Positions 4,220 to 62,085 of a stretch of DNA of 64,000 nucleotides are shown one piece after another. Location: the NCBI GenBank assembly GCA_021432655.1, contig MU271182.1, forward strand, positions 186,001 to 250,000, in the 5' to 3' direction. The stretch comes from Atractiella rhizophila (taxonomy: Eukaryota). Position numbers and translations under genes: made by a program. The notes beneath the pieces were generated by a model. It was not told the origin of the DNA, did no database searches, and saw nothing but the letters and a program-made list of their open reading frames with translations. Each line of letters begins with the position of its first letter. Within the stretch, counting starts at the first letter, position 1.

Positions 4220-4305
4220 GAGCTTCAAGCTCGTCGAGTTCACATGCTGGAGTCCCCCCCAACCTTATGAAGACTGGGAAAGAAACCTGTCTCAAGGCAC
4301 TGACA
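4220..4305 (-). repeat. LTR-like fragment related to the 5' end of the Copia element at ~28325
   Basis: Minus strand TGTCAGTGCCTTGAGACAGG...CCAGTCTTCATAAGGTTG...GAACTCGAC aligns with 28330-28410 (TGCCTTGAGACGGG...CCAGTCTTCATAAGGTTG...GAACTCGAC). It starts with TG. Confidence 0.6.
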
Positions 4306-4426
4306 GCCCTCGTCCCTCGGGCATCCCCACCCCCGCCAGTGGCTTCGCCCCTTGGACCCCAGCCTCCCGCGGCCACTGCGTGGAGCTCTTGCCTCTGGCA
4401 GCCACTGCGTGGGGCCTTGCCTTCGG
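4306..4426 (-). mobile_element. Orphan Helitron 3' subterminal module
   Basis: Near-identical to 18842-18963, 46110-46233 and 61829-61952 (CCACGCAGTGG x2, GGGGCGAAGCC, TGCCCGAGGGACGAGGGC). Confidence 0.85.
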
Positions 4427-18815: not shown

Positions 18816-21800
18816 CAAGTGTGTCAGTGCCCTCGTCCCTTTGCCCTCGTCCCTCGGGCATCCTCCCCCCCGCCAGGGGCTTCGCCCCTTGGACCCCAGC
18901 CTCTGGCGGCCACTGCGTGGAGCTCTTGCCTCTGGCAGCCACTGCGTGGGGCCTCGCCTTCGGCGAGCACAGACTCACCATATGTACTCTACTGTCTTCA
19001 AAAAAAAAAACAATGAAAGCTGAGTGGTCTCCTCGTACCTCGGAGAACCACTTCAGCTTTTGACTATACTGTTAGGAACATGCTGTGAGATGATCAGTGA
19101 TTGAGTACTTGTAACACTTCCTTGTAAACTACATTATCTGTTTGCTTGTTTTCCTCTCCTTGCTTTGTTTTGACCAATACTCGCAAATTGTTTGCATTTG
19201 AAACCCGTGAAAGACCAACATAAAGCTGCCCATGAGAGAAAGGAGAAGACTCTAAGTACAAACCCACATGTCCAACAGATTGTCCTTGCACTTTATTCAG
19301 AGTTAAGGCAAACGCTAAGCGCACAGGGAATTGAAAGCGCCGGAATTGAAAAGGAAGCTGGTTTGACACTGCACTGTCAATGCCAATTCAAGGAATGAGA
19401 ACTGATTCGCCACTGTGTGTACCTGTAATGATGGTTGCTTTGATGACTCGTCGGAGAAGCTGAGTGACAATGAGCCACGTGCCGTTGCACAGGCCAGCAG
19501 ATGGATTGAGATTTCGCAGAAGAATGATGGGTGCAAACGATGCGAAGGGAATCCAGAGATCTCCAGGGTATTCAGGTACTCAACAGAGAAGCGGTTTCTG
19601 AGATCTCCCTCGTCATCTATAATTTGATCTGCACTATAATATACCCGATCTCCTATGGATTCGAGCCACTGAATCAAGTGATCGTTGATGCCATCCACAT
19701 GATGTGGGCATGTGGTAGACCTCTCTTCTGACATTCAATGACCTAGACATATCTGATAACCCTTCCAAAGATCTGTCGTACCACTAAATCCTTGATGTAC
19801 TCTAGAGCCTTCAGTCAAAAAACCCTTGAAACCAAATCTGGTCGATCCTCTGGTTTTTGTCCTGGTAGGAGGGCTTCCGTGATCTCTGCCCAATGTGGGT
19901 TGTAAGTGAAGGTTGAAAAGATATTTGGGGGTCCTTTGGCACCAACTATAGTCATTGCATCCTGGAACAGCTGATTCATTGAACGTGGACTGCCAGTGAA
20001 ACTTGATGGTAATATAGTCCGCCTCCCGATATCTTCTAAAGAATAGCCTTCTGCAAGGGCATCCGTAAGACCTTGATACACCTCGGCTCGAAGAATAGAC
20101 TTGATTGAACCGCAGATAGCGGAGTCGATTCACCTCAATTTGAGCATAAGCATCAACTACCAATTCTTGCAGTAGCCGACCACCGTTGAGAGGGAGTGAG
20201 AATATATCATTTCGTTGATGCAATATGTAAGAATAGAACTCCATTTGGCTGACACGTTGTCGAACCCCAGAATTACCAACTTGCATGCCGTCACCATTGA
20301 AGTGCTCCCGCTCGCGAGGAGGAAGATCTGCAGGCAGGTCTCGATACGGAATCTGCGGATGCCATCCTTGGTCCCCATATGGAAACAGAAGAGGAAAACG
20401 AAGTGGAAGATAATTTGAGTTGAGCTCATTCACACGCTGTAAGTTGCTACTGGTCCTGGTTGGCCTGAGATGGATGACAATATCTCTGGCCACTCCATAT
20501 TCTTCTCTGTTACCGTCTCCTAACATCACTACAGCAACTTCACTGGCTACAGGAATGTTGTAGCGTCTTGGGTCCCTATCTCGTGGGGCGACTGTGCGAA
20601 GATGTAGTGTTGTAGTGGGATCCTGTTCCATTCTTTCTTTTGCAAATTTGTAGATCCTGGGATATGGGTTGACATGGAAGAGCATAGCCTGAAGTTCTTC
20701 AAGCATAGCACGACTCAGTGAGACTGAAGAGTTCCCAACTCTTCGTTCAATCTGTACACCTGAATCTGTAATGTAGACCTGTGCAAATGTTTCACACCCT
20801 TCTTGTTGTGGTAAAAGAGTGCCAATAAGGTGGCACAGCTCTCCCTGAATTTTGAAGGAGTAAGGACCATGTCCAGGAATTGATACCTGACGGACGCCTA
20901 AGGATGTAAATGCAAAAGCATTATTGAATATCCTGATATGCTCTCGAAATGCCATTGACTCTATAATGATTGTTCCTCTCAGATATGTATATGCAAAAAA
21001 TTGAATAGAAATACTTACCTGTTGTATTGTCATGTGTAAAAAGCTTTCGTAGCTCTTCAGGTGGAGGCGGAGGGTCAGGTAGCAGCACCTTGCTGTGGAG
21101 ACAGCACAATGCAAACTTTGGATTTCATTGTGGGCTGTTAACGATCTTCTCTTCCATCCAATGAAAGGCTTTGCAATGTGTACAAAGTAATCCCCAAGTA
21201 GAGAGGTGGTGTGCCTCAAGATCCATATCAGGTGAGTAGTTGAATGCAGGATAGTGATGTTGCCTTATTTCGCCTCACAACAACGGGATTAATGCCCTAT
21301 CCTCATCACTGTCCACACCATCAGGATCAGGAGAGGATGGGTATGATCGGGTTTCTTCTTCACTGTACTCCTCAGCGGAGGGTGAATGCTGTCTCCAATG
21401 TCGTCGAGCTCGCCATGATGATATAGATAGTAAAGAGCTTCGACGCTGCCGCTGACACTGACATGGAGCCCTAGTTGATCTTGTCTCATGTTGAGATGGA
21501 GTAGATGGAGTAGGATTAAAACGTGCAGGGCGTTGCCTCTCTCTTACAGGTCGACCTTGGTATAGTGGTGCCTCCTGCTGCAGACATTGATGCCGTTTGG
21601 ATCGACGCTCTCGATTTCTTGTTTGATTTCTCTGAATTGCACATGGCATGGGAGTGTAGCTTGCTGCACATAACAAAATGATATGAGTGAAGAATATATA
21701 AGCCAGAGTCCACACACCTATGCTTTTTTTGCTTGATTTGATTTGAAGCTAACAGGCTGAGGGATACTATGGTAGACTGTTAGGAAGCATATTTGTGGTG

Positions 21801-22423
21801 AAAGAAACTGTTTCACTTGCATGAATGCTTGCTCACTTTCCCTCATAGTTGGCAAACAACAGTTTTTGGTGCATGACATGAGAAGTCTCAGAAAGCTCTG
21901 AAGAAATTGCGGGCACGCAGTTTGCACACAATAGGATTTGGCAGTGACAAAATGTGACAGGACTGAAAATCGAACCCACACCAACACCAATCAGTCAAGG
22001 CTCAGCTCAACCATATACCAACTACACCATCGCGCAAACTCTGTACATTGCTGCCTTATTTGAGTAGGTAAAGAAATTTTTGTCAAAGTGCCGAAGTCAG
22101 TCACTTGACTCAGTCATGGAATACAACTATTTTTTAACCTTTATTGTATACTGTTGGAAAGGCGCTGACACGCGTATTCTGGTGGTATGCTCAGAATTTT
22201 GATGGGGTTGTTGTGGACCAAGAAGTCAATTGAGTCAGTAAGGAAAACATTTTTTTTTTCGTCTTTCAAATAGGCTTTGTTGTATACGGTTCGAAAGGCG
22301 CCGACACGCGTATTCTGTTGGTATGCTCAGAGTACTGGCAGGGTTGTTGTGGGTGGTGAGAGAAGTGCTCAAAAGTACATGCGTGAGTCATGCTAAAAAC
22401 CCGTCGTGCTTTATATATAAGGA
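18816..22423 (-). mobile_element. Helitron copy A (internally deleted, non-autonomous; same family as copy B)
   Basis: 5' TCCTTATATATAAAGC preceded by A and 3' hairpin + CTGACACACTTG followed by T. It retains Rep N-terminal and Pif1 C-terminal fragments (QFPVRLAFALTLNKVQGQS, FSHGQLYVGLSR). Deletion junction at 19700/19701. Confidence 0.92.
22145..22355. repeat. ~136-bp tandem duplication inside the 5' region of Helitron A
   Basis: TGTATAC...GACACGCGTATTCTG...GGTATGCTCAGA...GGGTTGTTGTGG occurs at 22145 and 22281. Helitron B has a single copy. Confidence 0.8.
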
Positions 22424-28324: not shown

Positions 28325-31300
28325 TGCGATGCCTTGAGACGGGTATACCTGCCAGTCTTCATAAGGTTGAAGAAGCACTCCAATGCTCGAACTCGACATG
28401 CTTGGAGCTCAGTGTGAGAGAATGTACCATTCTCCCGTTCTTTGCACTCTTTGGCGCGGTTACACGTTCATTTGTTTTTCATTCCTGTGTCTGCCTACAT
28501 TACAATATGTACATAGGGTTAGGTTTCTCCGTCCTGATTCCTCAGCGTTTTCCACCATCTCATATTCGCTGGGGATCAGCTCACATGGTAGTGAGAACCA
28601 TCTGTTAGCCACAAGTATCTCCTCGATTGTTCAGTATTGGTTTTAACGCCGCCCATTGCGAATTCTTGTAACAACACTACGAAGTGTACTGATTGTACAT
28701 GTCTTCTCGATACCTCACCCCATTCGACGACAGAGATCCTCCTCCACATACACCAGACAACCCTACTAGACAATTTTCTCCTGCCCTATCAAATACGACC
28801 GAGTCTTTAATCCCTTCATCTAACACCTCATCACCTCCACACTCGTTTCGGGCAATCGATATGGAATCTTCGCTGGGACAACGGGACTTATTATTGATGG
28901 AGTGCCTTCTATTCTAAGGGCAGGTTTTACCAGTTGGTGGGCGGCGATGAGAATGGGTCTCCAGGTCCGTATGGTTTACCGCTATGCATTGGACGAGCCG
29001 GTTGGGACGGAGGACTTTCGCCGTACTCAACCTTTGCGTAACACTTTCAGCAATTTGTCACAATGGGAGGACGCTATGGAACGTTGGGAAGCTGGGAACG
29101 CCAAGGCTGTGGCTATAGTCCTTGCGAATTTGGACCCCACGGCTGCGAATCAGCTTTCTGAAGAAGAAAAGCGTGTTGCTAGCTCCATCGTAGCAAGGAT
29201 GCGGGCACTATACAGCACAACCCAGGCCGTTATGGGTCACACGATTATAGCCAAATTGATCACATTTTATCAAAGTGGATCTGGATGCACATCCTTGGCG
29301 CAGTTCATCACCGAATGGAACGCGATTTATGCTGAACTACTCTCTGCAGACTCCGCTTACGCTCTGTCCGATGCAGTCCGCTTCCTCCTCTTCGTTAACC
29401 TCCTTGAACCTGAATGGAGGAAGTTTGCACTCAATCCAAAGAATGTCACCAGGAATGATCTAAACAATCTTTTCCAGAAACTGAAAGCGGAAGATGTAAC
29501 GAACACTGTTCTAGAGCATGGAGACCCTGGTATGCCCATGCATTTTCAGAGAGACACAAGTGTATACGCTGTGTCTTCTTCTCAGTCTCGATCTTTGTCA
29601 GTGCCACCTTCCTCCCAGCCGATATGTTTTTCCCCATCCTCTGCTCATCATTTTCCACCTGCGTCATCTGCAACACTGCAAAGCCAGACTCCCACATTGA
29701 GGCACCCATCTACACCTCCTTATCGACCCTCCTCGGCAACTTCTTCACTACCACGTATCCTCGTTTCTACCCCCCCTGTCGCTCCGATGTATAACCGACC
29801 TTGGTCGGTTCGGCCTCCTACTTTGCAACACTCTGGGAAGACGTATTGTCTCGCAAGGCAGGTTTATGGTCGTCCAGGGACCCGTGTATTTGGCCGCCGG
29901 GCGTGGGACTACGACGGGATTGACTCCGGGCCAGGATCTATCTCGCCGTCGGGTCATTTTATTGTACAGCCAAATACAAGTGTATACTGCCTTGGTATAG
30001 GACACATATCTTCCAGTTGCCGAGTGCCAGTTACACAGCGAGAGAAAACCCGTGATGCTGCCTTCGAGGCGATGGGTATTACTCTTCGACCTAACTCCTC
30101 CGGTCGATCTCAATATGTCCACACTTCGGTGTTGATTGCCAGCCCGGCTTTTGCATCTCCAAACGAACTCAATAGTGATGGCATTCCCCGCGCGGCCAAC
30201 GACATTTTTAGCCCTGGACCTGATGGGCGGTACGATGGAAACCTTGATGGAAAGATCATCCACAATGGTGACCTGTCCTACTGGCCATCCTACATCCAGG
30301 TTGCTTATAAACAACGATGCTGGCCTGTTCCTCTCCCGGCTCAGCATCCAGACCTTGACATTCACCCACTGTTTCTTCCATAATTCTCCCATGACAACCC
30401 AGTGCCTTCAAATGATCCTCATTTTCACACCCATGTACAGTACGCCCCGAATGGCGACATGTCTTTTGACGAGGCATTGCAAGAAATTTCAGACCAGGAA
30501 TACCTCAATTTCATGGAAGAACACGATACAACCCCCGGAAAGATCCTGCCCTCCATTTCTCCCTCTGCACTCCTTGCTTCTACTAATAATTCTCTTCTGC
30601 CTCGTTTAACAAGTTCTACTCCATCCGTATGTGATCAGCCGAAATTTTCTTCTAATTTGTCTTGGATTCGAAATTGCCTTCCTCTTACCATATCAAAATT
30701 TGTTCCTTTCAACCTTCCTCAAAATTTTCTTCGTTTTCTTGAATCCCCTGCTTCAATTGCTGAACGTTTCCTACCTGTTGACTATGCAGCGAATGTTGCT
30801 GCTCTCCATTCCACCACACTTTCCAACCTCGATTCGACAACTCGGTCAAACCCCTTTACGAGTTACGACGCCGTAATTCCTCCTACGGCATTCCGCTTCC
30901 TCACACATGATCGACCGGATGTTCCTTCCGTGTCTGTGCTCTGCTACGTTGATTCTGCAGCAACAGTACATATGTCGGGCTCCACTGCGCTGTTCGACGA
31001 TCTTCGACCCATCAACCCACCAGTCTTTGTGGGCGGAGCGTTTGGGAGTGGAGGATTTGCAACCCACGTTGGCAGGGTCTGTGCACTCCTTGAGGATCAA
31101 AGCGGAACATTGGTTTCCCAAGCAGATCTCGGCACAAGCCTCTACGTCCCTGGGCTTGGTGCCAAGTTGGTGTCCCATTTCGACCTCATGAGGCGTGGGA
31201 TCCGGTTCACCAACGACCGCGAACACCTCTTCTTTCGTAGAGAAGATGGTCGACACTTCGGTATGGCGAAGTTTGGCCAATCACAAATAGAACTCCAGGC

Positions 31301-34300
31301 AAGTTCCCTCTCCCCAACCCAACCTACAGAAAACATAGCTCATCCAAGCCCGTCTGCTTTTGCAGTTACGTCTTCCAAAATGTGGCATTCACGATTAGGC
31401 CACATAGGCACTACATGCTGGCGGGAGCTATGTACGCGGAGGTGGGTTACGGGTTTTGATTGCAATCTACGTGCTTTTGAAACTTGTACTGTTTGTGCGG
31501 CCGGGAAATCGAAAACAAGACCGAATCGACGGACCACAAAGAAGTCTTTGTTCACCAAGGGCGAACGGATTGACTGTGATTTGTGGGGCCCTGCACCTAT
31601 TCCTGCTTCGCAAAGTGGTTTTAGAAATGGGCTTGGAATCGTTGAGGAATCTACTGCCATAATATGGTGGATTCCTCTATGACTTAAGTCAGATGCCGCT
31701 GCGGCGTTGAGAGTGTGGATTGTGGAGACAGAACGTCGTCACAATGTCAAGGTAAAAGTTTTGAGAAGCGATAATGGTGGGGAGTTTAAGTCTATGGTTT
31801 TCACAAGCTTCATTAAGAAATCGGGTATTCTTCATGAAACATCCATTCCTTACGTCCACAATCAGATGGGTTTTATGGAGCGTCGCTGGTACACTATTTT
31901 CGATGTAGCACGCACTATTTTATTAGAATCTGGGTTACCTTTGTCATTTTGGGAAAAAGCTGTACAATTCACTGTCTACACTTTAAACCGCCTACCTACA
32001 TTTTCTCATGGTGTTTGGAAATGTCCTTTAGCACTTTGGTCAGGGGATGCACCTGATCTCTCTTCTCTTCGCACATTTGGTTGTTTGGCTATTATTCACA
32101 TTCCGAAGGAGCGGCAGATCTCCAAACTTCATCCGAGAGGGGCAAGGGGATATTTTGTGGGGTGTTTGCCTGGTGCCAAGGGCTGGTTGTTCTGGGTACC
32201 GTCACAACGGAGATTCATCGAGGCGAAAGATGTAAAATGGTTTGAAGATGAATTTTATCGGGATCGCCCTCAAGAGGATACGGCTAGGTTGAGTGACTGG
32301 ACTCTTGATGAATTCATGCCTTCAGATTTTCACAACCTCGCCGACGAAGTACTGATCAACATTCCTGGCCTTGAAGAAATCATACCTCCCGTCATACCTA
32401 CGCTTTCGAATACACAGGATACACAAACGAATTCGGCAACCCCGGTTATACCGACAGTTTCGACCACATTGCCAGCTCCTCCTGACCCTGTGCCATCGGC
32501 CCCTCCTGCACCCACTCCTTTGATCTCTGGCGATGGAGGTGGGGACGGATTACTGCATGGTGAAACTGAGGAACAGCCTGCTTTGCCACGCACTAGGCAA
32601 GTCCCTAAGCGCTGTCCATATCACGTCCCTGCGCCATACCCTCCACATAACCAGCGCCCAAAACGGAATATTCCTCGGTTTGATTATACTGATCAGTTAA
32701 AAGGGAAACCTTCAGATAAACGACTAGACCAGCCACAGCACTCCGTGTTCTATTTCGATGCTAACTTTAGGTCTGCCACCCAAGACTTCATTCCTTCTTT
32801 AGCTAGCAGGAACATGTCGTCCATGTTAGGGTCCTCCCTACAGTCTTCGCTTACTGGTGATGGTGAGGATGTACGACGATGGCAGGTATTTACTGCCAAC
32901 ACAAAATGGACAGGCAGTCTTGATGAACCCACTTTCAGACAGGCGCTCACAGGTCCAGATGCTGAACATTGGTGGGCGGCCATCTTAGCTGAAATAAACG
33001 CGCTGCAGGCGATGGGGACGTGGGATGCGGAGCCAGTACCTTTGCCTCCTGGCAAGAAAGCAGTAGGTTGTAAATGGGTATTGCTGATAAAAAGGGATCT
33101 AGATGGTAGTGTCATTAAATACAAGGCATGGTTGGTTGCTCGAGGTGATACGCAGACAGAGGGTGTTGATTTTGATGAAACATATGCTCCTACGGTGCCT
33201 ATGGCTTCTGTCCGTGCGATTCTCTCCCTTGCTGCCTCAACACGCATGAAGCTGGGACAGTTCGACGTGAGCAATGCCTTTCTCAATGGCGTGCTCAATG
33301 AGGAGGTCTATCTCCGCCAGCCACAGGGCTTTGTGGACTGTGACCATCCGACTCATGTGTACAGATTACGAAAGACTCTATACGGCCTCCGGCAAGCAGG
33401 CAAAGGTTGGAAGATGCTGCTCATACTTTCTTTATAGGCCACGGTTTTACTCGGTTGGATGCAGACCATGGAGTGTACATCAAGAGTGGGTTAGAAGGTC
33501 TTACTATTGTTGCTATCCACGTCGACGATGGCCTGGTGGCTGCCTCTACACACGCGCTTATAGAACACCTATACACAGCCCTCCGGTCTCAGTTCAACAT
33601 CACCACATCACCAGTAGGGAATTTTCTAGGGATGAGGATAACGTGGGACGAGGATCAAAGTCGCATAACGCTGGACCAGGAAAGTTACATGCATAAATGC
33701 ATTGACAGATACGGTTTACAGGATATGCGCCCGGTTAAAACACCGTGTGAAGTCAATGAGAAGGTCTCCGATACCTGGTCTCCTCAAAATGAGGGCGATA
33801 GGGAGTATATGAAGAGGATTCCTTATCGTGAAGCAGTGGGAGCTCTGATCTATGCTGCAGTCAATACCCGCCCGGACATAGCGTTTGCGGTTAACCGAGC
33901 TGCACGATACAATGTGAACCCTGGACATCGACATTGGTCCATGGTACAACACATTTTTCGATATCTTCTGGGGACGATGGGGTTTAAGCTGATATGAGAT
34001 GCTACAGGGAGCACCACATTAGATGGATTTTCTGACTCTGATCATGCTGCTGACGTGGATACCAGACGCTCCATCTCTGGTGTTACCTTTCGGTTAGGAC
34101 GTTCAGCCATTTCATGGATCTCGAAGATGCAGCCTACTGTCGCCATTTCCTCAACTGAAGCGGAGTACATCGCCCTGTTGACTGCAGCGAGGGAGGCGAT
34201 TTGGCTACGAGCACTCCTCGCTCAACTGGGTTTTGCTCAACAAGGGCCCACACTAATTCGGGGTGATAACCAGGGGTCTCTTTTACTTGCGAAACACCCA

Positions 34301-34470
34301 TCTAACCACAGCAGGACCAAGCACGTTGACGGGCACTATCACTTTACACGCGAAAAGGTAGCGAATGGGGACATTGTTCTCAAATGGATCCCGACACAAG
34401 AAATGGTTGCCGACGTTCTTACCAAAGGTCTAGGACACCTGCAACACTCAAGACTGTTCTGAGATGGGCC
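28325..34470 (+). mobile_element. Ty1/Copia LTR retrotransposon, decayed; probable 5' LTR ~28325-28635, no 3' LTR seen
   Basis: Domain order is gag-PR-IN-RT-RNaseH. PBS-like TGGTTTTAACGCC at ~28638. Confidence 0.9.
28861..34462 (+). pseudogene. Copia gag-pol
   Basis: PR YVDSAATVHMSG; WHSRLGH..CTVCAAGK; IN DLWGP, RSDNGGEF, MERRW; RT CKWV, FDVSNAFLNG, YGLRQA, HVDD; RNase H SDSD, STEAEY, GDNQG, ADVLTK. Stops at ~31680 and ~33995, plus frameshifts. Confidence 0.92.
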
Positions 34471-40099: not shown

Positions 40100-40458
40100 T
40101 GAGGTGAACATTAAAAAAGCGGAGCAAAAAATACTCACATTTGTATATCAAAAATACAATTTGCTATTACTTCACCATTATCTATCACATTCCAGGAGTG
40201 AGTAGGGCGAACGCAAGGTCTGAGAGCCGGCTACAACGATGTATAATTCGTAGTACGAATAAGCTAATATCAAAAGAGCGGAGGACAAAATACGTACCTC
40301 AGATATCAAAACATGCAATTCCCTGTTGCTCCACCATTATCCATCGTATTTAGACCTGAGTGTGGTAAGTTATGTGACTGAGGGCTAGATATTACTACGT
40401 ATAATGCATAATAAGATTGAGCGAACATCAAAAAAAGCGAAGGAAAAAATACACCCTA
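40100..40458. repeat. Degenerate ~160-bp tandem repeat (third unit split by Helitron B, continues at 46246-46345)
   Basis: AAAAAAGCG..AAAATAC...CCATTATC...GAGT...CTGAG recurs at ~40110, ~40270, and ~40430 joined to 46246. Confidence 0.75.
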
Positions 40459-43400
40459 TCCTTATATACAAAGCACGACGGGTTTGACCATGACTCATGC
40501 ATGTACTTTTGAGCTCTTATATCACCGCCCACAACAACCCTGTCAGAATTCTGAGCATACCAACAGAATACGCGTGTCGGCGCCCTTCGAACCGTATACA
40601 GCAAAGCCTGTTTGAAGACAAAAAAAAAAATTGTTTTCCTGACTGAGTCAGGTGACTTTTGACCCTTTGGGCAAAGCTTTGGTTACCTACTCAAGTAAGT
40701 TGATAGAACGTAAAAGTTGTACTATGGTTTAGTTGGTGTGCGGCAAAATTCAGGTTAGGGATCATGTTTAGGTGAGTTCGATTCTCGGTGGGGTCACATT
40801 TTGTCACCCTGAAAAGTGCAGCACTGTGAAGTGCCTGCACTCGATTTCTTCAGCGCTTTCTCTGATTTCTCGCATTGTGCGCCAAAAATCATTGTTTCCT
40901 AACTATGAGGGAAAGTGAGCAAATGTTCATGCAAGTGAAACAGTTCTTTCAACACAAATATGCTTCCTAACAATCTACTATAGTATCCCTGAGTCCTTTA
41001 CCATCAAATCAAATCAAGTAAAAGGGGCATAGGTGTGTGTACTCTAGCTTATGTATTCTTCACTTACATCATTTTGCTATGTGCAGCAAGCTACACTCTC
41101 ATGCCACATGCAATTCAGAGAAATCAAACAAGAAATCGAGAGCGCCGATCCAAACGGCCCCAAAATCTGCAGCAGGAGGCACCACCACACCAAGGCCGAC
41201 CTATAAGGGAGAGGCGACGCCCTGCACGTTTTAATCCTACTCCACCGACTCCACCTCAGCATGAGACGAGACCAACTAGGGCTCCACATCACCGGCGACG
41301 TCGAAGCTCATCACTGTCTAGATCGTCACGACCAGCTCGACGACATCGGAGACAGCGTTCACCCTCCCCTGAGGAGGACAGTGAAGAAGAGGCTCAACAG
41401 CACCCATCCTCTCCTGATCCTGATGATGGAGACAGCAATGAGGATAGGGCATTAGTCCTGTTGTTGCAAGGCGAACAAAGGCAACATCACTATCCTGCAT
41501 TCAACTACTCACCTGATATGGATCTTGAGGCACACCACCTCTCTATGTGGGGATTACTTTGTACACATTGCAAAGCCTTTCATTGGATGGAAGAGAAGAT
41601 CGTTAACAGCCCACAATATAATCCAAAGTTTTCATTGTGCTGTCTACATGGCAAGGTGCTGCTACCTGTTCCTCCACCTCCTCCTGAAGAGCTACGAAAG
41701 CTTTTTACATATCACAATACAACAGGTAAGTATTTCTATTCAATTTATTGCATATACATATCTGAGAGGAACAATCATTATAGAGTCAAAGCAATTTCGA
41801 GAGCATATCAGGGTATTCAACAATGCTATTGCCTTTACATCCTTAGGTGTCTGCCAGGTATCAATTCCTGGATACGGTCCCTACTCCTTCAAAATTCAGG
41901 GAGAGCTGTGCCACCTTATTGGTACTCTTTTGCCACAACAAGAAGGGGGCGAAACATTTGCACATGTCTACATTACAGATTCAGGTGTACAGATTGAACG
42001 AAGAGTTGGGAACTCTTCAGTCTCACTGAGTCGTGCTACGCTTGAAGAACTTCAGGCTATGCTCTTCCATGTCAACCCATATCCGAGGATCTACAAATTT
42101 GCGAAAGAAAGAATGGAACAGGATCCCACCACCACACTACACCCTTCGCACAGTAGCTCCACAAGAGAGGGACCCAAGACGCTACAACATTCCTGTAGCC
42201 AGCGAAGTTGCTGTGGCGATGAAGATGGCAACAGAGAAGAATATGGAGTGGCCAGAGATATTATCATCCAGCTCAGGGCAATCACAACCAGTAGCAACTT
42301 ACTGCGTGTCAATCAGCTCAACTCAAATTACCTTCCACTTCGTTTTCCTCTTCTGTTTCCATATGGGGACCAAGGATGGCATCCGCAGATTCCGTATCGA
42401 GACCTGCCTGTAGATCTTCCTCCTCGCGAGCAAGAGCACTTCAATGATGATGGTATGCGGGTTGGTAATTCCGGGGTTTGACAACGTGTCAGCCAAATGG
42501 AGTTCTATTCTTACATGTTGCATTAACGAAGTGATATATTCTCACTACCTCTCTATGGTGGTCGGCTATTACAAGAATTAGTAGTTGACTCTTATGCACA
42601 AATTGAAGCATATCATCTCCGCTACCTTCGGTTCAATCAGTCTATTCTTCGAGCTGAGGTATATCAAGTCTTACAGATGCCCTTGCGGAAGGCTATCCTT
42701 TAGAAGATATAGAAGGCGGACTATATTACCATCAAGTTTCACTGGCAGTCCACGTTCCATGAATCAGCTGTTCCAGGATGCGATGGGTATAGTTGGTGCC
42801 GTGGAACACCCAAATACCTTTACAACCTTCACTTGCAACCGAAACTGGGCAGAGATCACGGAAGCCCTCCTACCAGGACAAAAACCAGAGGATTGGCCAG
42901 ATTTGGTTTTAAGGGTTTTTCGACTGAAGGCCCTGGAGTACATCAAGGATTTAGTGGTACGACAGATTTTTGGAAGGGTTATCGGATATGTCTGGGTCAT
43001 TGAATTTCAGAAGAGAGGTCTACCACATGCGCACATCCTGTTGATTCTTCATCCTGAAGATCTTATCAGGGACGAGGCAGCCATCGATCAAGTAATTCAA
43101 GCAGAGCTGCCTGATCCGGACAAGGACCCTGTATTGTTTGAAATAGTCACCAAACATATGCTACATGGTCCATGTGGTGAACATAATCCACATGCACCTT
43201 GCATGGTTGATGGAAAGTGTGGCAAAGGGTATCCCAAGCCTTTTGTCGAGGAAACAAGAATCAACGAAAATGGTTACCCTACCTATCAACGACGTAACAA
43301 CGGCCGGGTTTTTCGGAAGATGATACAGGGTCAAGAATTTATATATGATAATCGATGGGTAGTGCCCTCTAACCATTTGGGTCCTAAGGAAGTTTCTGGC

Positions 43401-46245
43401 TCACATCAACACAGAGATCTGTATCTCAATTCGCTTTATCAAATATGTCTTTAAATACGTATACAAGGGGCCAGATAGAGCACAATTAGTCTTAGAATCA
43501 GATGGCAGTGGAGCGAGAGAGCCAGTGGATGAGATTAAAGAGTATTTAGATGCACGGTATGTTGGTGCTTCGGAAGGTTCGTTTTGTCCATTCTCAAAAA
43601 GTTGACAGTTAAGTAGTGTTATAATTTTTAGCGTGCTGGCGGATTTTCCACTTCAAGCTTCATGATCACTCTCCAACTGTGATTCGACTGAGCATTCATC
43701 TTCCAAATCAACAGATGGTCATTTTTAATGCAGAAGACGATCAACGTGAAGATATACTTTCAAGGAGAAACATTGGGAAAACAATGCTCAGCGAATTTTT
43801 CCAATTTTGCCATGACCCTCCCCAGGTCTCCTGATTGTGGACCTATCCTCAAGCACCCTCGACACTTGGTCTGGCAGAGTAGTTCAAAGCGCTGGAAGAT
43901 ACGTGAGAAAGGCGATGCTATTGGTCGGATATATTATATTGCGCCATCACAAGGGGAGCTCTTTTATCTTCAACCACTTGTTCTCAAGGTCCCAAGTCCT
44001 AAATCTTTTGAAGATATTCGTACAATTTATGGTCAAGTTCACGAAACATTCAAAGCAGCCTGTGTGGCGTCAGGTCTACTGGAAAGTGACGAAGAATGGG
44101 ATCTGTGTCTGGAAGATGCAAATGCAATCAAACGAGGATAGCAATTCGTTCTCTTTTTGTCTACATTTTGGTCTTTGGAGTTACAAGCGAACCATTACAA
44201 CTGTTTCGAAGACACTATGGTAAGCTCAATGAAGATTGTGCACATCTTCTGCAAACAGTTTATTGAATGGCTACGCCTTCTGAAGACCAGATCCGAGACT
44301 TATGCCTTATTGAGCTAGAGGATCTGCTACATGGTCTAGGCAAGACACTAGAGGAGTATAGGTTGCCGTTACCTGCTCACAGGTTTGCACGATGGGGTGG
44401 AGAGACAAGGATAATTGGAGAAGAGCTGGCGTACAACGTTATGGAGTTAGAGCAACGTCTTGATAGGGATCTTCCTCTTATGAATGAGGATCAACGACAC
44501 ACATATGATACAATCATCGAAGCCTGGCGGAATGGCACCGGAGGACTCTTCTTTCTCGATGGGCCTGGAGGAACTGGAAAGACTTTTGTTCAGAATCTTA
44601 TACTGGCAAGAGTAAGATCATCCAAGAAGATTGCACTAGCAGTAGCCTCTTCTGGAATTGCTGCTATTCTGCTTGAAGGTGGTCGTACCGCTCATACGCG
44701 CCTCAAGATTCCCCTCAATGCAGATGCTCAGTCAGTTTGTGGTATTTCGGCTCAAAGTGATCATGGAAGGCTATATGTCGAGGCAGAAATTATCCTGTGG
44801 GATGAAGCCATTATGAGTGATCGCCTCTCCGTCAGCTGTGTGGATCGGTTGGGGCAGGACCTTAAAAAGGATTCAAGACCATTTGGAGGAACACTTATAG
44901 TTTTCTGTGGTATGATACTTCCCTTTAAGTAGTTCTTTATTAACATACTGTTCACAGGAGATGGCAGACAGTGTCTTCCGGTAGTGCCAATGGAAGCCGA
45001 GCTCAGATTGTGGATGCCTGCATTATTAATTCTTACTTCTGGCCGAATGTTCAAGTCCTGCCTTTGAAAACCAATATGCGCCTTCTTCGAGGCCAACAGG
45101 AAATGACACCAGCCGAATTTCAGCATACAACCAGATTTGCCCAGTGGCTCCTTGATGTTGGAAATGGTCTCACTGATAATCCGTCAGACAATGGATGTGG
45201 AGCCTTAACGATACCAGATGGATCTATTATTCCATCCCACGAAGGACTAGATGGTCTGTTGCGCTCAATTTACGGACAACTAGATTCTCTACGAAATATC
45301 CCTGCTCTGAGCTTCCTTCGAGAATACTTCCGGGTTTGCATGATTCTAGCAGCAAAGAATGTGGATGTGGATGGCATCAATGATCGCTTGATTCAGTGGC
45401 TCGAATCCACAGGAGATCGGGTATATTACAGTGCAGATCAAATTATAGATGACGAGGGAGATCTCAGGAATCGCTTCTCTGTTGAGTACCTGAATACCCT
45501 GGAGATCTCTGGATTCCCTTCACATCGTTTACACCTCAAGATCGGTGCACCCATAATTCTTCTGCGAAATCTCAATCCATCTGCTGGCCTGTGCAACGGC
45601 ACACACCTCATAGTCACTCAGCTTCTCCGGCGAGTCATCGAAGCAACCATCATTACGGGTGCACACAGTGGCGAATCAGTTCTCATTCCTCGAATCGGCA
45701 TTGACAGTGTAGTATCAAACCAGCTTCCTTTTCAATTCCGCCGCTTTCAATTCCCTGTGCGCTTAGCATTTGCCTTAACTCTGAATAAAGCGCAAGGACA
45801 ATCTGTTGGACATGTGGGTTTGTACTTAGAGTCTTCTCCTTTCTCTCATGGGCAGCTTTATGTTGGTCTTTCACGGGTTTCAAACGCACACAATTTACGA
45901 GTATTGGTCAAAACAAAGCAAGGAGAGGAAAACAAGCAAACAGATAATGTAGTTTACAAAGAAGTGTTACGAGTACTCAATCATTGATCATCTCTCAGCA
46001 TGTTCCTAACAGTATAGTCAAAAGCTGAAGTGGTTCTCTGAGGTACGAGGAGACCACTCAGCTTTTCAATGTTTTTTGAAGACAGTAGAGTACATATGGT
46101 GAGTCTGTGCTCGCCCAAGGCGAGGCCCCACGCAGTGGCTGCCAGAGGCACGAGCTCCACGCAGTGGCCGCCAGAGGCTGGGGTCCAAGGGGCGAAGCCC
46201 CTGGCGGGGGGGGATGCCCTCGTCCCTCGGGCACTGACACACTTG
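40459..46245 (+). mobile_element. Helitron copy B, full length (5787 bp)
   Basis: A|TCCTTATATACAAAGC ... hairpin-CTGACACACTTG|T. No TSD. The flanks rejoin into one tandem-repeat unit. Confidence 0.95.
41101..45987 (+). pseudogene. Helitron RepHel (HUH Rep + Pif1 helicase), intron-containing, with stops and frameshifts
   Basis: FTTFTCN, VIEFQKRGLPHAHILL, YVFKYVYKG, DGPGGTGKT, WDEA, LCNGT, QFPVRLAFALTLNKAQGQS, HGQLYVGLSR. Confidence 0.93.
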
Positions 46246-47090
46246 TATATGTCAAAGATACGATTCCCTATTACTTTGCCATTATCCATTGTATCTCAGG
46301 CGTGAGTATGTCGAATGCAAGGCCTGAGAGCAGGCTATAAGGATTATTAGCCTTGAGGGGATATTAACAAAGCAGAGCATTAACTCACATTATTTACGGT
46401 TGTCCGACTCCTCAACAGTGCATTCAGTCCTCTTGCAACTGCAGTTGTAATTGATCAAATAAAGCTCAGGATTTGCCTTTGTTTATAATAGTTGATGTGA
46501 TACTTATAAAAAATTTCAGAAGTGGAGGCTGGTGCATTATACGTCCCAGACTGAAAATCACAAAAGATATATTTGTATCTGGCTACTCACTAAGAGAACC
46601 ACTACTTTCTCTTCCCTGCTTCAATATGCAACCTTTCTTTTGTCAAAACCCAGTCCATCTTTTCCTCTATCCATGTCATTGCCAAAAAACTCGCATGTTC
46701 ATCATCTCCACCAATTGATCGACATCTGGTACTTTCCCATCCTTGATATCTGTGAAAAACTTCTTTACCACATTCTTGTCTATGCTCCATTTCCCCACCA
46801 TATTCTTGCAGAGTGGGACATTGAGTAAGTTGTTCTTTGGCAGTGGGTACCGGACCTTGGACCAATGCAGAAAGTTGTCGTCACAGATGTCACGCTTATG
46901 ATTGTTTGTATTCTTCTCACCATACCCATCCTTTTGTTTCTTGCATTGACCCCAAGTCTTTACAGCTCCAAGGTTTCCCTTCTTTGTTGGCTTTGGTTAT
47001 GTGACTTTCACTGGTGGAGGGAGTGTTGTTTGTAGTTTCCAGAATAGTTTGATCACTGTTTAACACATTGTTAGTAATTTCCTTTTCTTG

Positions 47091-56280: not shown

Positions 56281-56484
56281 GAGCTCGAGCGACTCTGCTG
56301 GATACTACCTGCAGATGCTGAAGGGGAACCTTGTGCGGCGAGCGTCCGTCGGCGTTAAAACTGGTACCAGTTTTGTGGGCAAATCTCCTCAAAATCAAAG
56401 CGCAAAAAACTTTTTTCACCTTGCGGCCTCCGGCTGCTTTTGCAAAACGCACGGGCTGACCAGTTTGCCCTTTTTGGCTGCAAA

Positions 56485-59400
56485 TCCTTACCTCTAAAAG
56501 CCATCCCTTCTTGGCATGAGTCATAAAACGCACTTTTGAGCGTTCATACCTCCCTCAGCAGGCACATTGAAACGAAATGAATTACACCATGTTACTGCAT
56601 ATGTTTGCGCCTTTCTGGAGCTGCAAGGAAATTTTATTTTGAAGTGGTGAGAAAAAGTGTTTTGCAGCGGACTCGAACCCTTTGCAACCGTGAACTCTGC
56701 TTCCCCGGCTCCACTGGCTTCCCCACTTGGCCCACTTGGCCGCTAAACACCGTGCGCAGCTGCCCCGCAAAGCAACCGCAGCACACGGCGCCAAAACAAG
56801 GCCGCACGCTATTTCTTCAGCGCATTTTGGGATTTCTCAAGTCGGGCGCCAAAAAGTATCATTTGCCTACCTTAAGGGGAAGAAAGTGAGCACATATGAG
56901 CTAGAATATACTGCCTTTAGTGCTTTCTAACAGCACTTTAGAATCATCATGCCCCGCCCTAAGCAAAAAAATGGTGCAAACCGACGAGTTCATGCTCAGC
57001 AGCAACGACGAGAAGAGAGCCAGTCAGATACCCCTCAGGCTGCTCCACGACGCACAGAGAGACGTCATGCAGGACTGCCCCAGCGTTTTCAGATTACGCA
57101 ACCTACCCCACCTCAGCACTTGACACGCCAAATTCGTGAGCAACAGCAGCAGGCTCAACCTCTGAGGGTACGACGACAACATCGGCAGCCAGACCCTCAG
57201 CCTTTAGATGGAGACATCACTGAAGGATCCTCTGATGGAGGATTTGGGAACAATGATGTTCCTGACCCAAGGATGTGCCACCAAGAGATGAAAGGCATGA
57301 TCGGCATCCTTTCATCGCATTTAACTACTCTTCGGGAACCGTGGAAGCCGTGCGGCTTTCTGGCTGGAGCGTAGTCTTCTGCTCAGAATGCAGTGCCTTC
57401 CGTTGGCTTGAGGAGCGAATAGTCAAGAGCTCTAAGCGTAATCCAAAATTTACGAACTGCTGCTCCCATGGAAAGATTGTTCTTCCTGCTTATGAAAATC
57501 CTCCACCAGAGTTGTTTCAGCTGTTCACCAATCCAGATACGCATGAATCAAGACAGTTTCGTGAGAATATCCGCTCCTACAATAATGCTCTTTCCTTTAC
57601 TTCTCTCGGAGTCAAGCGGCCACCTATCCCTGGGCATGGAGTTTACACTTTCCGGATTCAAGGGGAGCTTTGCCATCGCATCGGTGCTTTGCTTCCGGAA
57701 TCTGATGGCGAAGAAAAGTTTGCACAAATATATATGCTGGATTCTGAAGAGCAGATTCGTCAAAGAATAGGGACCATTAGAGGGAACAAACTTAAGGAAG
57801 TGACATTGAGAAAGTTGCAAGACATGATGTGGCGAGTTAATCCATGGCCGGAAATCTATAAAACTGCAAGGGAGCGTATGGCAGATGACCCAGCATTACA
57901 ACTCCACATTCGAACTATTAATCCTACAGATCTCGATCCCCGTCGATATAATAGGCCAACAGGTCATGGCATAGGAGAAATTGCAGTGCTTCTCATTGGA
58001 GAAGAATCAGGAGCCACCGCAGGTGTCACAAGAGATATTGTGGTCAAACTCCGACGGCCTGATGGTCAGAACTTTTATGAAAAAGTCAGCGATCAAAATG
58101 CCAACTATCTCCCACTGCGATTTCCACTTTTATTTCCATATGGCGAGCAAGGTTGGCACACGTACATTCCCCTCCGTCATGGTGATCTGCTTCAACGTGG
58201 TCCACGGGAAGAACATCGAAATAATGACGGACAAATAGTTGGAAACATGGGAGAACGAGTTCATGTTACGCAGATGGACTATTACTCCTATCTTTTTCAC
58301 CCAAAGAAGAATACTTTCTCTCTCATTCACCATGGTGGTCGACTATTTCAAGAATTGGTTTGCGATGCTTACGCCCAAATAGAGAGTGGAAGATTGAAGT
58401 TTCTTCGGTTCAATCAAGATCTTCTCCGAACTGAATCCTATGCTGGACTTGGTGACGCCTTAGAAGATGGCCGAGATGCAGAGATGTTGGGAAGCGGACC
58501 ATTTTACCATCCACACATACTGGAAGCCCACGTCAAATGAATCAACAATTTCAGGATGCGATGGCGATTGTTGGAAACAGAGGTTCTCCCGCTATCTTTA
58601 CAACATTCACCTGCAATCCTCGATGGCCCGAAATCACAGAAGCCCTGCTTCCTGGGCAAACAGCTGCAGATAGGCCAGACTTGGTCTCTAGGGTTTCAAC
58701 GTGAAGGTGAAGGCCTATATGCAGGACATCAAAGATAACTCAATCTTTGGACGGACAGTTGGCTTTGTCTTGGTGATCGAATTTCAGAAACGTGGTCTGC
58801 CTCATGCTCACATCCTCATCATTCTCAATGCCGAAGACACCATCCGGGATGTTGAGGCTATCGACCGCATAGTATCTGCTGAATTGCCTGACAAGGACAC
58901 CGATCCTGAGTTATTTGACATTGTCTGCAATCACATGCTCCATGGACCCTGCGGAGATACCAACCCAGATGCTCCATGCATGATAGATGATCCTAAGAAC
59001 CCTGGGAGAAAAATCTGTGGCAAAGGGTTTCCAAAGCCCTTTGCAGAAGAAACAGGCATCAACGAAGATGGTTATCCCACCTACCGGCGACGTAACAATG
59101 GACGCACATTTCAGAAGACACCGAACGGATTTATTTACGACAATCGCTGGGTCGTACCATTCAGCGCTTATGTCCTTCTGAGGTTTGTAGCTCACATCAA
59201 TGTGGAGCTTTGCATCTCCATTAAATCAGTCAAATACCTCTTCAAATATGTCTACAAAGGAAATGATCGGGCACAAGCTGTACTTCATCATGCAAGAGGT
59301 GAAGGTGTGAGGGTTCTGGATGAGATTCAAGAGTACTTGGATGCCAGATTTATCGGATCTTCTGAAGGTAATGCTTAACATGATATTATGGGTAATCTGA

Positions 59401-61955
59401 TATATCTTTCTAGCCTGTTACCGGATCTTCCACTTCCACTACACCAGCACTTCCCTGTGGTTATCCGCCTGGCAATACACCTTCCTGATAGGCATTTTGT
59501 GACCTTTAATCCCCAGGATGAGTCACTGGGAGACATTCTCAACAGGAATAATGTCACCAAAACGACGTTGACTGAGTTCTTCACCTACTGTAGGGAAAAC
59601 CCCAACATTACTGAAGACCTTACCTATCCAAGAGCGCCCCAATTCCTTACTTGGAAGTCAGCCACACGCTCTTGGAAAATTCGGGAGCGCCAAGAAGCCA
59701 TTGGACGCATATATCACGTTGCACCTTCACAAGGGGAACTATTCTATCTCCAAATGCTCCTCCATAAAGTTGTCAGCCCAAAATCTTTTGAAGATATCCA
59801 GACAGTAGATGGAACCATCCACGAGACTTTTAAGGCTGCATGTATGGCTCTTGGGTTGTTAGAAAGTGATCAAGAATGGGATTTCTGCCTTGATGAAGCC
59901 AGTGCAGTTAAGAATGGCTTTGCGATGCGGTCTCTCTTCGTCTATATTCTATTATTTGGTGTTGCCAGTGAACCTAGAAGACTATGGGATGGCCATAATG
60001 GGCAGCTCAGCGATGATTGTAAACACCTTCTACAAACAAAGTATGGCACAGCCGATCCGACACAGGAGCAGATTATCAGTCTTTGTCTCCTTAATTGAAG
60101 ATCTTCTCCAGGCGTACGGTAAAACTCTAACGGATTTTGGACTACCACAACCGGCAGAGCGGTTTGAGAGATGGGGAGGGGAGACAAGGATTATTGGTGA
60201 AGAGCTTGCATATGTTCGATCATTACTTCAGACACGCCTTGAGACAGAGTTGCCATTGTTAAACGAAGATCAACGTCATGCTTATGACACGATTGTAGCA
60301 GCATGGCAAGGTGGAAATGGTGGATTGTTCTTTATCGATGGACCAGGAGGGACTGGAAAGACATTTGTGGAAAATTTACTCCTTGCCAAGGTTCGGTCAT
60401 CTAGGAAGATTGCGCTAGCAGTGGCCTCTTCAGGTATTGCCGCTATCCTGCTGGAAGGAGGACGAACGGCCCATACACGCTTCCGGATCCCACTGGACAT
60501 TGATGCCGACTCAGTCTGTAGTATTACTGCTCAGAGTGATCATGGACGACTTTGCCGTGAGGCAGAATTGATAATTTGGGATGAAGTAGGAATGAGCCAT
60601 CGATGGTGCTTTGAAGCAGTTGACCGGATGCTTAGAGACATGTGCAAAATAGATGCACCTTTTGGTGGAGTTATTTTGGTCCTAGGTGGTGAGTGAATCA
60701 AGTTAAAGAGTTCAGCTCTAATAATTTTCAGGTGATATGCGACAATGTTTATCAGTGATTCCCAAAGCTTCACGGGCACAGATTGTCAGTGCATGCGTTA
60801 TCAACAGTCCTTTCTGGCCAGCAGTTCAAGTCCTCCCTCTGACCGTGAATATGCGCCTTCTTCGTCATCAAGCTGAAATGACACGGCGGGACTTTACGAC
60901 TGCCTCTCGCTTTGCTGAATGGTTGCTGTCAGTTGGGAATGGTGCAACCGACAACCCAGAAGACTGTGGCCATGGTCCATTGACTATGAAAGATCAAACA
61001 ATAGTCCCACGATCCCGTGGCCTGGAGGGTCTTTTAAATGATATCTATCCTGGACTCAGCACTATGACACAAGAAGTGAACTCAGTTGAGCTCAGGCAAT
61101 ACTTTCAGGAGCACATGGTCCTTACAGCCAGAAATATTGATGTTGACCTGATAAATGATCAGCTTATTCAGGACTTTGTCTCCCGGCAGGAGCGAGTCTA
61201 TCTCAGTGCCGATCGATTGATGGACGACAGTGAGAATATTCAACAAGGATTTACGGTTGAGTACCTCAACACTCTCAACATGACGGGACTTCCTCTCCAT
61301 CGGCTTCATCTCAAAGTTGGAGCCCCTGTCATCCTGTTATGAAACCTCAATCCTTCAGCTGGGCTCTGTAACGGTACACGGTTGATGGTCACCCAGCTGC
61401 TTTCTCGCGTTATTGAGGCTACAATCATCACAGGAGCATTTCCCGGTACCTCAGTCCTCATCCCACGTATTGCTTTGGATAGCAAGGTCTCCAATTCATT
61501 TCCTTTCACCTTACGCCGGTTTCAATTCCCCATCAAGTTGGCTTTCTGCCTCACCATCAACACGTCACAGGGACAGTCGGTGGGAACTGTTGGATTGTAT
61601 TTGGACACACCAGTTTTTACACATGGACAACTTTATGTAGGACTTTCTAGGGTTTCAAACGCAAAGAATCTTCGAGTTTATTTACACCAAGTGCAAGGGA
61701 TAGAGAATAAGAGGACAGAAAATATAGTGTACAGAGAAGTTTTGAATTTTCACAATCAGATGCATGTAGACCTACAATGAAATCATATAGATTCGTACCA
61801 AAACCCATGTGCATATGGTGAGTCAGTGCTCGCCGAAGGCGAGGCCCCACGCAGTGGCTGCCAGAGGCAAGAGCTCCACGCAGTGGCTGCCGGAGGCTGG
61901 GGTCCAAGGGGCGAAGCCCCTGGCGGGGGGGGATGCCCGAGGGACGAGGGCATTG
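56485..61955 (+). mobile_element. Helitron copy C (diverged family), full length
   Basis: A|TCCTTACCTCTAAAAGC ... hairpin-TTG|T. The flanks rejoin to recreate a copy of the local GCAAA..CTCAAAAT..AAGCGCAAAA repeat. Confidence 0.88.
56949..61780 (+). pseudogene. Helitron RepHel, intron-containing, frameshifted
   Basis: CSECSAFRW, CCSHG, VIEFQKRGLPHAHILI, KYLFKYVYKG, DGPGGTGKT, IWDE, QFPIKLAFCLTINTSQGQS. Premature TGA at ~61340. Confidence 0.93.
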
Positions 61956-62085
61956 TTTTCTCAAAATATAAGCGCAAAACCATTATTCTACTTGAGCCTG
62001 GGCGACCAGTTTGCCAACCCTTGGGCACCGTTTGCCAACCCTTGGGGGACCAGTTTGCCTTCTTTGTTCTTTAAGAGCAAGCACA

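Follow-up and report, generated by a model that had tools for sequence, protein, structure and literature searches.

This locus raises the question of why the last ~140 bp of a Helitron should be almost identical between elements whose RepHel genes have clearly diverged. The initial annotation of the 64-kb window (the whole stretch of DNA analyzed here) had listed a series of small hairpin motifs, a G-run and a terminal hairpin in this module, all of which were present where it had placed them, and had considered both a structured single-stranded DNA (ssDNA) signal and a module exchanged between families. Based on the analyses below, we assign a probability of about 0.7 to a recent swap or homogenization of ends among Helitron1 lineages, in which hairpins H4 and H5 form the terminator, H1–H3 are accessory, and H5 and a further hairpin, H0, probably contain sheared G·A pairs.

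Module Copies and Element Ends

Self-comparison of the window identified four copies of the module that were mutually 93–96% identical. The family C copy (61809–61955, + strand), the reference copy of the initial annotation, was 95% identical over 130 nt to the family B copy (self-match 46090–46236, 136-nt module 46110–46245, + strand, H5 loop inverted), compared with 64–66% for the RepHel DNA of B and C in the window, which confirmed the reported near-identity of ~140 bp beside diverged genes. The orphan module reported at 4306 was also confirmed, as a fragment truncated at both ends (4306–4426, − strand) with 95% identity to the 61.9-kb copy over 121 nt. A fourth copy, unlisted until now, was located in a deleted B element (18816–18987, self-match 18842–18987, − strand; 96% identity to the 61.9-kb copy over 146 nt). 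The module had been described as terminal, and H5 does lie near the end of the element, but the 61.9-kb copy stops short of the true terminus, which comparison of flanks placed in intact copies at ...CACTTG followed by T, 12 nt farther on. The last 11–12 nt were missing from both this copy and the orphan.

A complete family B Helitron (40459–46245, + strand) begins with TC and ends with CTTG, with a host A before it and a T after it, and lies between flanks that correspond to two halves of a repeat unit of the host. A second B copy (18816–22423, − strand) has an internal deletion and keeps both ends and the module. The family C element has a 5' end (LTS; 56485–56690, + strand) that starts with TC and is homologous to, but diverged from, those of families B, C2 and D, and a RepHel gene in several broken frames (57266–61780, + strand) with Helitron_like_N, PIF1 and Pif1_2B domains. 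Pfam searches identified Helitron_like_N and PIF1 domains upstream of both the 46-kb and the 62-kb module copies, with Pif1_2B likewise present in copies B and C, and the closest public proteins to RepHel had at most 48% identity over the full query. The relatives and the G+C content suggest a fungal host. A 5'-end-like match at 26364 proved to be no element and was discarded.

Searches of the host genome (51 Mb in 1998 contigs) gave 41 scored module matches among 106 candidates, and a 22-mer from the module core matched 74 times compared with once for the control. After de-duplication there were 80 matches, 38 in family B, 20 in C/C2 and 11 in D, with 11 unplaced in any family. The module follows the end of the helicase in the B, C, C2 and D loci, the 5' ends begin with TC (40459, 56485 and 22423 in the window; C2 and D likewise), and most genome copies end in CTTG followed by T, an ending that the 61.9-kb copy has lost. 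The order toward the terminus is the 19-nt H5, 8 nt, CTTG and the host T, with H5 ending 12 nt before the terminus. Some 5' ends follow a T, or the CTTG of another element, instead of an A. CTTG lies outside the strict CTRR and is a reported variant of it; such ends have been reported for Pleurotus HELPO2 (PMC4289320). A search for the inverted repeats of the Helitron2/Helentron signature found none of at least 40 nt joining the ends of B or C, which are TC and CTTG. These are Helitron1 elements, with the stretch as their right terminus (RTS), and the module both behaves as a Helitron1 terminator and belongs to that class.

At loci L254 (G000:C203), L131, L151 and L155 the 5' ends are stacked or duplicated, including a C 5' end preceded by a B 5' segment, and repeated TCCT(T)A starts. 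Stacked and duplicated 5' ends have also been reported for the self-insertion of Fusarium Helitrons.

Hairpins of the Module

In the family C copy (+ strand throughout) the module is led by a 17-nt tract, found in full only in B and C (61812–61828), which is shortened in C2 and absent from D and is the breakpoint zone of the B/C exchange. It is followed by H1 (61829–61843), with a 6-bp stem and a c[GAA]g loop, and by two 29-nt tandem units (61847–61897). The first unit carries H2a, with a c[GCA]g loop, and GCC-AGA-GGC; the second carries H2b, also c[GCA]g, and H3 (GCC-GGA-GGC, 61889–61897), with a c[GGA]g loop. H2a and H2b start at 61847 and 61876, and both read CCAC-GCA-GTGG. The penultimate block (61899–61924) consists of GGGGTCC and H4 (61907–61921), a G/C stem of 6–8 bp with a c[GAA]g loop. 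H5 (61934–61952), the canonical terminal hairpin, is preceded by a G-run and has a 5-bp stem around the invariant GAGGGACGA.

A full copy has five CGNAG sites within 83 nt, each at the apex of a stem and all on the sense strand, with none on the antisense strand. H1, H2a, H2b, H3 and H4 each have a GNA triloop closed by C-G and at least two further pairs, as in the definition of cGNAg hairpins. Both CCAC-GCA-GTGG motifs of the initial annotation are present, but H2a and H2b are one 29-nt tandem duplication and not independent. Since two of the five cGNAg loops thus lie in one duplicated unit, the independent loops number four. One unit was absent from 20 of 69 copies counted by eye (10/38 B, 8/20 C and 2/11 D), and larger losses were also seen. 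The breakpoints differed among five aligned unit-loss copies, which had no derived bases in common; differing breakpoints indicate recurrent loss.

The three stemmed 9-mers tested had chance means of 1.12, 0.88 and 1.27 per window, and 2, 1 and 2 were seen in the window outside the module copies. A hand estimate, based on 16 possible 3-bp stems at ~1 match per 128 kb each, gave ~0.01 stemmed cGNAg expected in 95 nt, or perhaps 0.1 at the local G+C. The whole module folded no better than shuffled sequences (z −0.8 to −1.7 as DNA, −1.1 as RNA), and we rejected a selected global structure on these non-significant scores. Individual hairpins folded modestly better than shuffles (z about −2.1 to −2.6), and the energy model gave similar energies for both strands, with no strand preference. 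We consider the cGNAg hairpins H1–H4 to be candidate mini-hairpins; the footprints described below for H0 and H5 suggest stems that fold in vivo.

Family E and the Parts of the End

Family E, the most numerous family, consists of non-autonomous, non-coding elements of ~280 nt (111 genome pattern matches compared with 2 for the control). Its 5' ends are of the C, C2 or D type, each matching the first bases of its autonomous partner, and are joined to one other 3' end. This end shares 50 invariant columns of ~72 with the module, i.e., it has ~22 differences. H1, the two 29-nt units with H2 and H3 are absent, and there is no stemmed cGNAg at all in E. H4 has kept its stem (7 of 8 pairs never vary) with CAT as its loop, and the 9-nt core of H5, GAGGGACGA, is unchanged. 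The E end works despite lacking H1–H3 and having a non-GNA loop in H4, and E has been mobilized without H1–H3. As E has no stemmed cGNAg, it is unlikely that the cGNAg cluster is required for mobilization, unless long elements alone need it; only H4 and H5, the last two hairpins, look necessary.

A single-strand origin would be expected in every element needing conversion to double-stranded DNA, and stemmed cGNAg is absent from E; searches of Rfam, plasmids and phages likewise yielded no homology to any origin described so far or to an RNA or DNA family. We consider a required cGNAg priming origin unlikely. The structured ssDNA signal of the initial annotation stands insofar as the hairpins probably fold on the displaced strand, but a required cGNAg second-strand origin or Rep docking site does not agree with an end that lacks H1–H3 and has CAT as its H4 loop. 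Its reading of the ultra-conservation as selection on a needed cGNAg cluster is not supported either: the linkers are identical too, the adjacent DNA is ~51% identical, and E is mobilized without the cluster. It had named GNA loops that vary across families as evidence against its proposal, which is largely what E presents in lacking H1–H3 and having a CAT loop in H4. The CAA loop seen in window copy B does not represent its family, since GAA is retained in most of the 38 B copies.

At the E elements of L131–L160 and other loci, the 5' and 3' parts meet in an inverted repeat (GAACCC...GGGTTC) that may have directed E's deletion.

One 3' End in Four RepHel Lineages

The module is common to four RepHel lineages, B, C, C2 and D (60–89% amino acid identity). 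The helicase C-termini were 62–63% identical in amino acids between B and C, 60% between B and D, 82% between C and D and 89% between C and C2, and the RepHel DNA was 64–67% identical between B and C/D and 73–80% between C and D. The 5' ends of the four lineages are homologous yet distinct and diverged. The family-majority module sequences (38 B, 20 C/C2 and 11 D, compared by eye) differed at no more than 1 of 136 columns, and this single column is a T/C site that is polymorphic within families. The identity extends to all of the ~47 linker bases among the 136. The lack of fixed differences across lineages of 60–89% amino acid identity, together with an E end that tolerates change, indicated recent exchange, in agreement with the earlier suggestion that the module moves between families.

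C2 and D are colinear in the 63 nt upstream of the module, where 32 of 63 positions are identical (~51%; last codons and UTR, compared by hand), with an abrupt rise in identity from ~51% to ~100% where H1 starts, at its first base. Between B and C the shared sequence reaches 17–19 bases farther upstream of H1, and the B UTR beyond it is unrelated. Vertical descent of the module under extreme purifying selection on all 136 bases, with no exchange, is very improbable. The colinearity of C2 and D up to and through the module, with its sharp step at H1, is what such descent would leave, but identity at ~47 linker bases is vanishingly unlikely next to DNA of ~51% identity (a hand estimate), the E end functions although it differs at ~22 of 72 nt, and the B UTR is non-homologous, with a breakpoint 17–19 nt upstream of H1. 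A difference of at most 1/136 is too small to be due to selection alone, given an E end that differs at ~22/72. The fragmentation of the assembly into 1998 contigs could suggest an artifact in which different elements were given reads from a single repeat end; this has a negligible probability, as copies with flanks and substitutions of their own number in the dozens and occur in every family.

The step in C2/D identity exactly at the first base of H1 would be unexpected for a random conversion tract and counts against a pure swap; H1 may thus have been conserved before homogenization. The recent recombination that the initial annotation had held up as a threat to its own reading is the best explanation of the identity and largely goes against that reading; this step speaks against a swap pure and simple. 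We also weighed, and consider unlikely, a reading in which the cGNAg cluster H1–H4 is a selected single-strand signal for long autonomous elements only (a lagging-strand priming site, an RPA-free landing site or a helicase brake) and the swap spread as a better end. Such a signal would agree with five cGNAg loops on the transposed strand only, with identity that begins at H1 and with the presence of the module in all four autonomous lineages; second-strand priming of Helitron circles is described as open (PMC5876387), and mini-hairpins at the G4, ssiA and N4 sites are described as binding SSB poorly (PMC13037366). It is opposed by the mobilization of E without any stemmed cGNAg, by the loss of one H2/H3 unit from 20/69 copies along with larger losses, and by the lack of detectable similarity to known origins in Rfam, plasmids and phages.

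Head-to-tail CTTG/TC joints were found at four distinct sites among the loci examined, one of them joining a C-type end to a B start, and E elements sit directly behind C- and D-type ends. A degenerate B copy (L109:2790–2840; G000:C61, near 121.6 kb) has a different end after its B UTR: another C/G stem around nearly the 9-nt H5 core, a second small hairpin and a TTAG end before T or similar. This type of B end was seen once only, and as a single lead it is a possible pre-swap B terminus.

With recent exchange as the preferred reading, RepHel would nick the plus strand at a family-specific 5' end and then peel the strand off. H4 and H5 would fold on the displaced strand as a pause or termination signal, a role inferred here and established for Helraiser, and RepHel would cut after CTTG. 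One version of the 3' end would recently have swept B, C, C2 and D by recombination or template switching of co-replicating elements, aided by head-to-tail tandems and by residual similarity beginning at H1. H1–H3 would be accessory mini-hairpins carried with the swept end and not required in trans, and may slow the helicase or compact the strand. The 3' end would be interchangeable because family specificity does not come from it.

H5 and H0 Cores

Two pairs of the H5 stem differ on both arms between the module and E; the alignment tool counted one of them, and a gap offsets the other. The covariation that the initial annotation had called for was seen in H5, but it is weak, being a single comparison of two lineages in which one such pair also arises in 342 of 500 shuffles. 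The core of H5, GA-G-GGA-C-GA, is invariant and can be drawn as C-G, G·A, A·G and G-C pairs with a GGA triloop, and the C-G to T-A change in E-type H5 retains pyrimidine-GA-purine. Family B has an upstream hairpin of its own, H0 (46030–46057, + strand), in which a stem unrelated to that of H5 surrounds (C/T)GAG-GTA-CGAG, a core of the H5 type with a GTA loop. Pyrimidine-GA-purine occurs in register on both arms of H5, E-type H5 and H0 (two to three independent instances, judged from sequence only). The H5/H0 core pattern had six matches in the window, all in H5/H0 hairpins, compared with 0.46 expected; a genome search for further ends that carry the H5 core, using a pattern whose spacer length is unlike that of known ends, matched 8 times compared with 7 for the control. 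We regard the H5 core as a possible sheared-G·A block, H5 and H0 as probably folding into DNA-specific sheared-G·A hairpins, and the last two hairpins of the module as possible candidates for unusual ssDNA folds. A GNA triloop closed by G-C is reportedly weaker than one closed by C-G.

H0 was loop-inverted at four distinct sites and cleanly deleted in other copies, and H5 was loop-inverted once, in window copy B. Inversions of this kind, like the clean loss of a stem, suggest extrusion of the stems as the DNA is replicated. The module also lies ~50–125 nt past the stop codon on the coding strand, where its structure could act in the 3' UTR of the RepHel mRNA (in stability or termination) instead of in DNA. 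We consider this highly improbable, still more so than vertical descent: the RNA fold had a z of only −1.1, mini-hairpins are described as far less stable in RNA (PMC13037366), H4 and H5 are retained in the non-coding family E, and loop inversions are DNA events.

Searches beyond the Genome

The metagenome scan covered the best 80 of 588 helicase loci. A first scan with a three-sequence alignment found no relative, and a covariance model of the last 77 nt of the module gave no match better than E 0.1 in 87 loci (the best 80 metagenomic and 7 viral). The viral contigs contained seven distant helicases (29–30% identity), and an exact 25-mer from the module was absent from them. Rfam gave no match to the module (best E 5.1), and no significant origin homology was found in plasmids (best E 0.03 over 24 nt) or phages (best E 6). 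The best short match of the origin searches was a Paenibacillus intergenic repeat with the H4 block (E 0.03), which is a lead only.

Termini were predicted blind to the loop, as a stem followed by a CTRR-like word and T, at loci with at least 120 nt downstream. This gave 18 metagenomic termini on single contigs among the best 80 loci, of which 3 had a cGNAg loop as called; none did among 5 antisense and 16 upstream control predictions, and 3/18 alone is not significant. By eye, one further cGNAg in another register and two C-closed GNNA loops brought GNA/GNNA loops to 6/18, in a comparison whose controls lack GNNA scoring. A pattern test downstream on the sense strand gave five matches, four with real stems, compared with none for the inverted loop; the match at L232, which had no stem, was dropped. 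The other predicted termini had AAC, ATC, AAA, GTT, TTA and TGT loops. Closure by sheared pairs is also possible for ANC and ANA loops.

The predicted end at L223:4276–4340 is module-like, with a GGGGTCC-G6[GTA]C6 block and a terminal hairpin, and the predicted Helitron-like end at L178:1838–1936 has three structured elements. The latter, which include GA-GC[GCA]GC-GA, would favor a selected H1–H4 signal, but most metagenomic ends have a single hairpin. Pif1 domains were checked at three metagenomic loci. GGGGTCC with a G-stem/C-stem block was observed to recur at two metagenomic Helitron-like ends and in the Paenibacillus intergenic repeat (loci L223:4276–4340; L178:1838–1936; L266:1200–1224). 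Our search of openly available full texts found no paper linking Helitron with triloop.

Comparison with Known Systems

In the account of Helraiser, the LTS is essential and the RTS dispensable, new 3' ends arise readily, and the terminator hairpin keeps ~90% activity after a stem swap but not after a loop change (PMC4778049). The plus strand of Helitrons is described as nicked at the left end, displaced, circularized and transposed, with the mechanism of second-strand priming open (PMC5876387). The elements studied here resemble Helraiser and its RTS in having a 5' TC, a 3' tetranucleotide before a host T and a subterminal hairpin ~12 nt from the end, with the signal on the plus strand and a loose, exchangeable 3' end (PMC4778049, PMC5876387). 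Unlike the Helraiser RTS, the module ends in CTTG, has up to six hairpins instead of one, has G/C-rich stems and GNA loops in place of an ATT loop, and forms an end common to RepHel genes that are only 60–63% identical.

Pleurotus HELPO1 and HELPO2 are similar in being fungal-type Helitron1 elements, with a CTTG end in HELPO2 and subfamilies that combine one 3' end with different 5' ends, which is how fungal Helitron families are defined there; in that source's description, by which and not by sequence we compared them, there is one subterminal hairpin and no cluster (PMC4289320). Helitron 3' ends have elsewhere been described as diverse (PMC4588551). The printed terminal hairpins of Fusarium FoHeli1/2 include C-GAA-G loops, and their 3' ends are more conserved than their 5' ends across groups, as here; unlike the module they belong to Helitron2, with asymmetric inverted repeats, hairpins at both ends and an ATTTT end, and the account of their ends does not treat the loops as mini-hairpins (PMC5148889).

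H1–H4 have the loop and closing pair of the d(GCGNAGC)/d(GCGNNAGC) mini-hairpins of the phage G4 origin, RSF1010-type ssiA and N4 promoters, a class that includes C-closed GNNA loops, and both occur on a strand displaced as ssDNA (PMC13037366). Unlike those sites, the module showed no sequence homology to them in our searches, E does without the hairpins, and there is no known primase or polymerase partner. The CGAG block, with tandem sheared G·A pairs, has been solved by NMR (PMC10085684). Like it, H5 and H0 carry pyrimidine-GA-purine on both arms in the required register, which E keeps through its C-G to T-A change; unlike it, they are capped by a G-C-closed GNA triloop and are known here from their sequence (PMC10085684).

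The genome presents a clear natural case in which 5' ends track the transposase and 3' ends move freely between lineages, with each of two different 3' ends found in combination with three or four 5' lineages. Such free movement is reason for caution in classifying Helitron families by their last 30 bp. If loop chemistry matters, it would explain why the loop of the Helraiser hairpin is essential and the stem is not, it would provide a sequence rule for finding Helitron ends, and second-strand priming would become directly testable with two natural ends, those of the module and E. We speculate further, and doubtful as it is, that Helitron right ends may be read as DNA-specific non-canonical folds (sheared-closed mini-hairpin loops and tandem G·A), which would signal RepHel to stop and, where the element is long, offer a protein-free second-strand priming site, and that an improved end may behave as a selfish cassette, spreading through RepHel lineages uncoupled from the transposase gene.

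Other Features of the Window

Copy B is inserted within a diverged 159-bp host tandem repeat (40107–40452, 46238–46344). The flanks of copy C (56380–56484, 61953–62060) resemble one another, and copy C, which lost its 3' tip, ends at a shared GGGCA. To its right, from 62086 onward, there is a gene-like stretch broken by stops, which may resemble Crinkler-type N-termini. Remains of a Copia-type retroelement (GAG-pre-integrase, rve, RVT_2) occupy 28824–34462, and 28330–28410 has a 77% inverted match to 4220–4299, beside the orphan module. The word TGA(C/G)TCA, presumably AP-1/Gcn4-like, occurs ~30 nt inside all four 5' ends (40488–40497 and 56517–56524 in the window) and again right upstream of the module in B and C (61819–61825 in the window).
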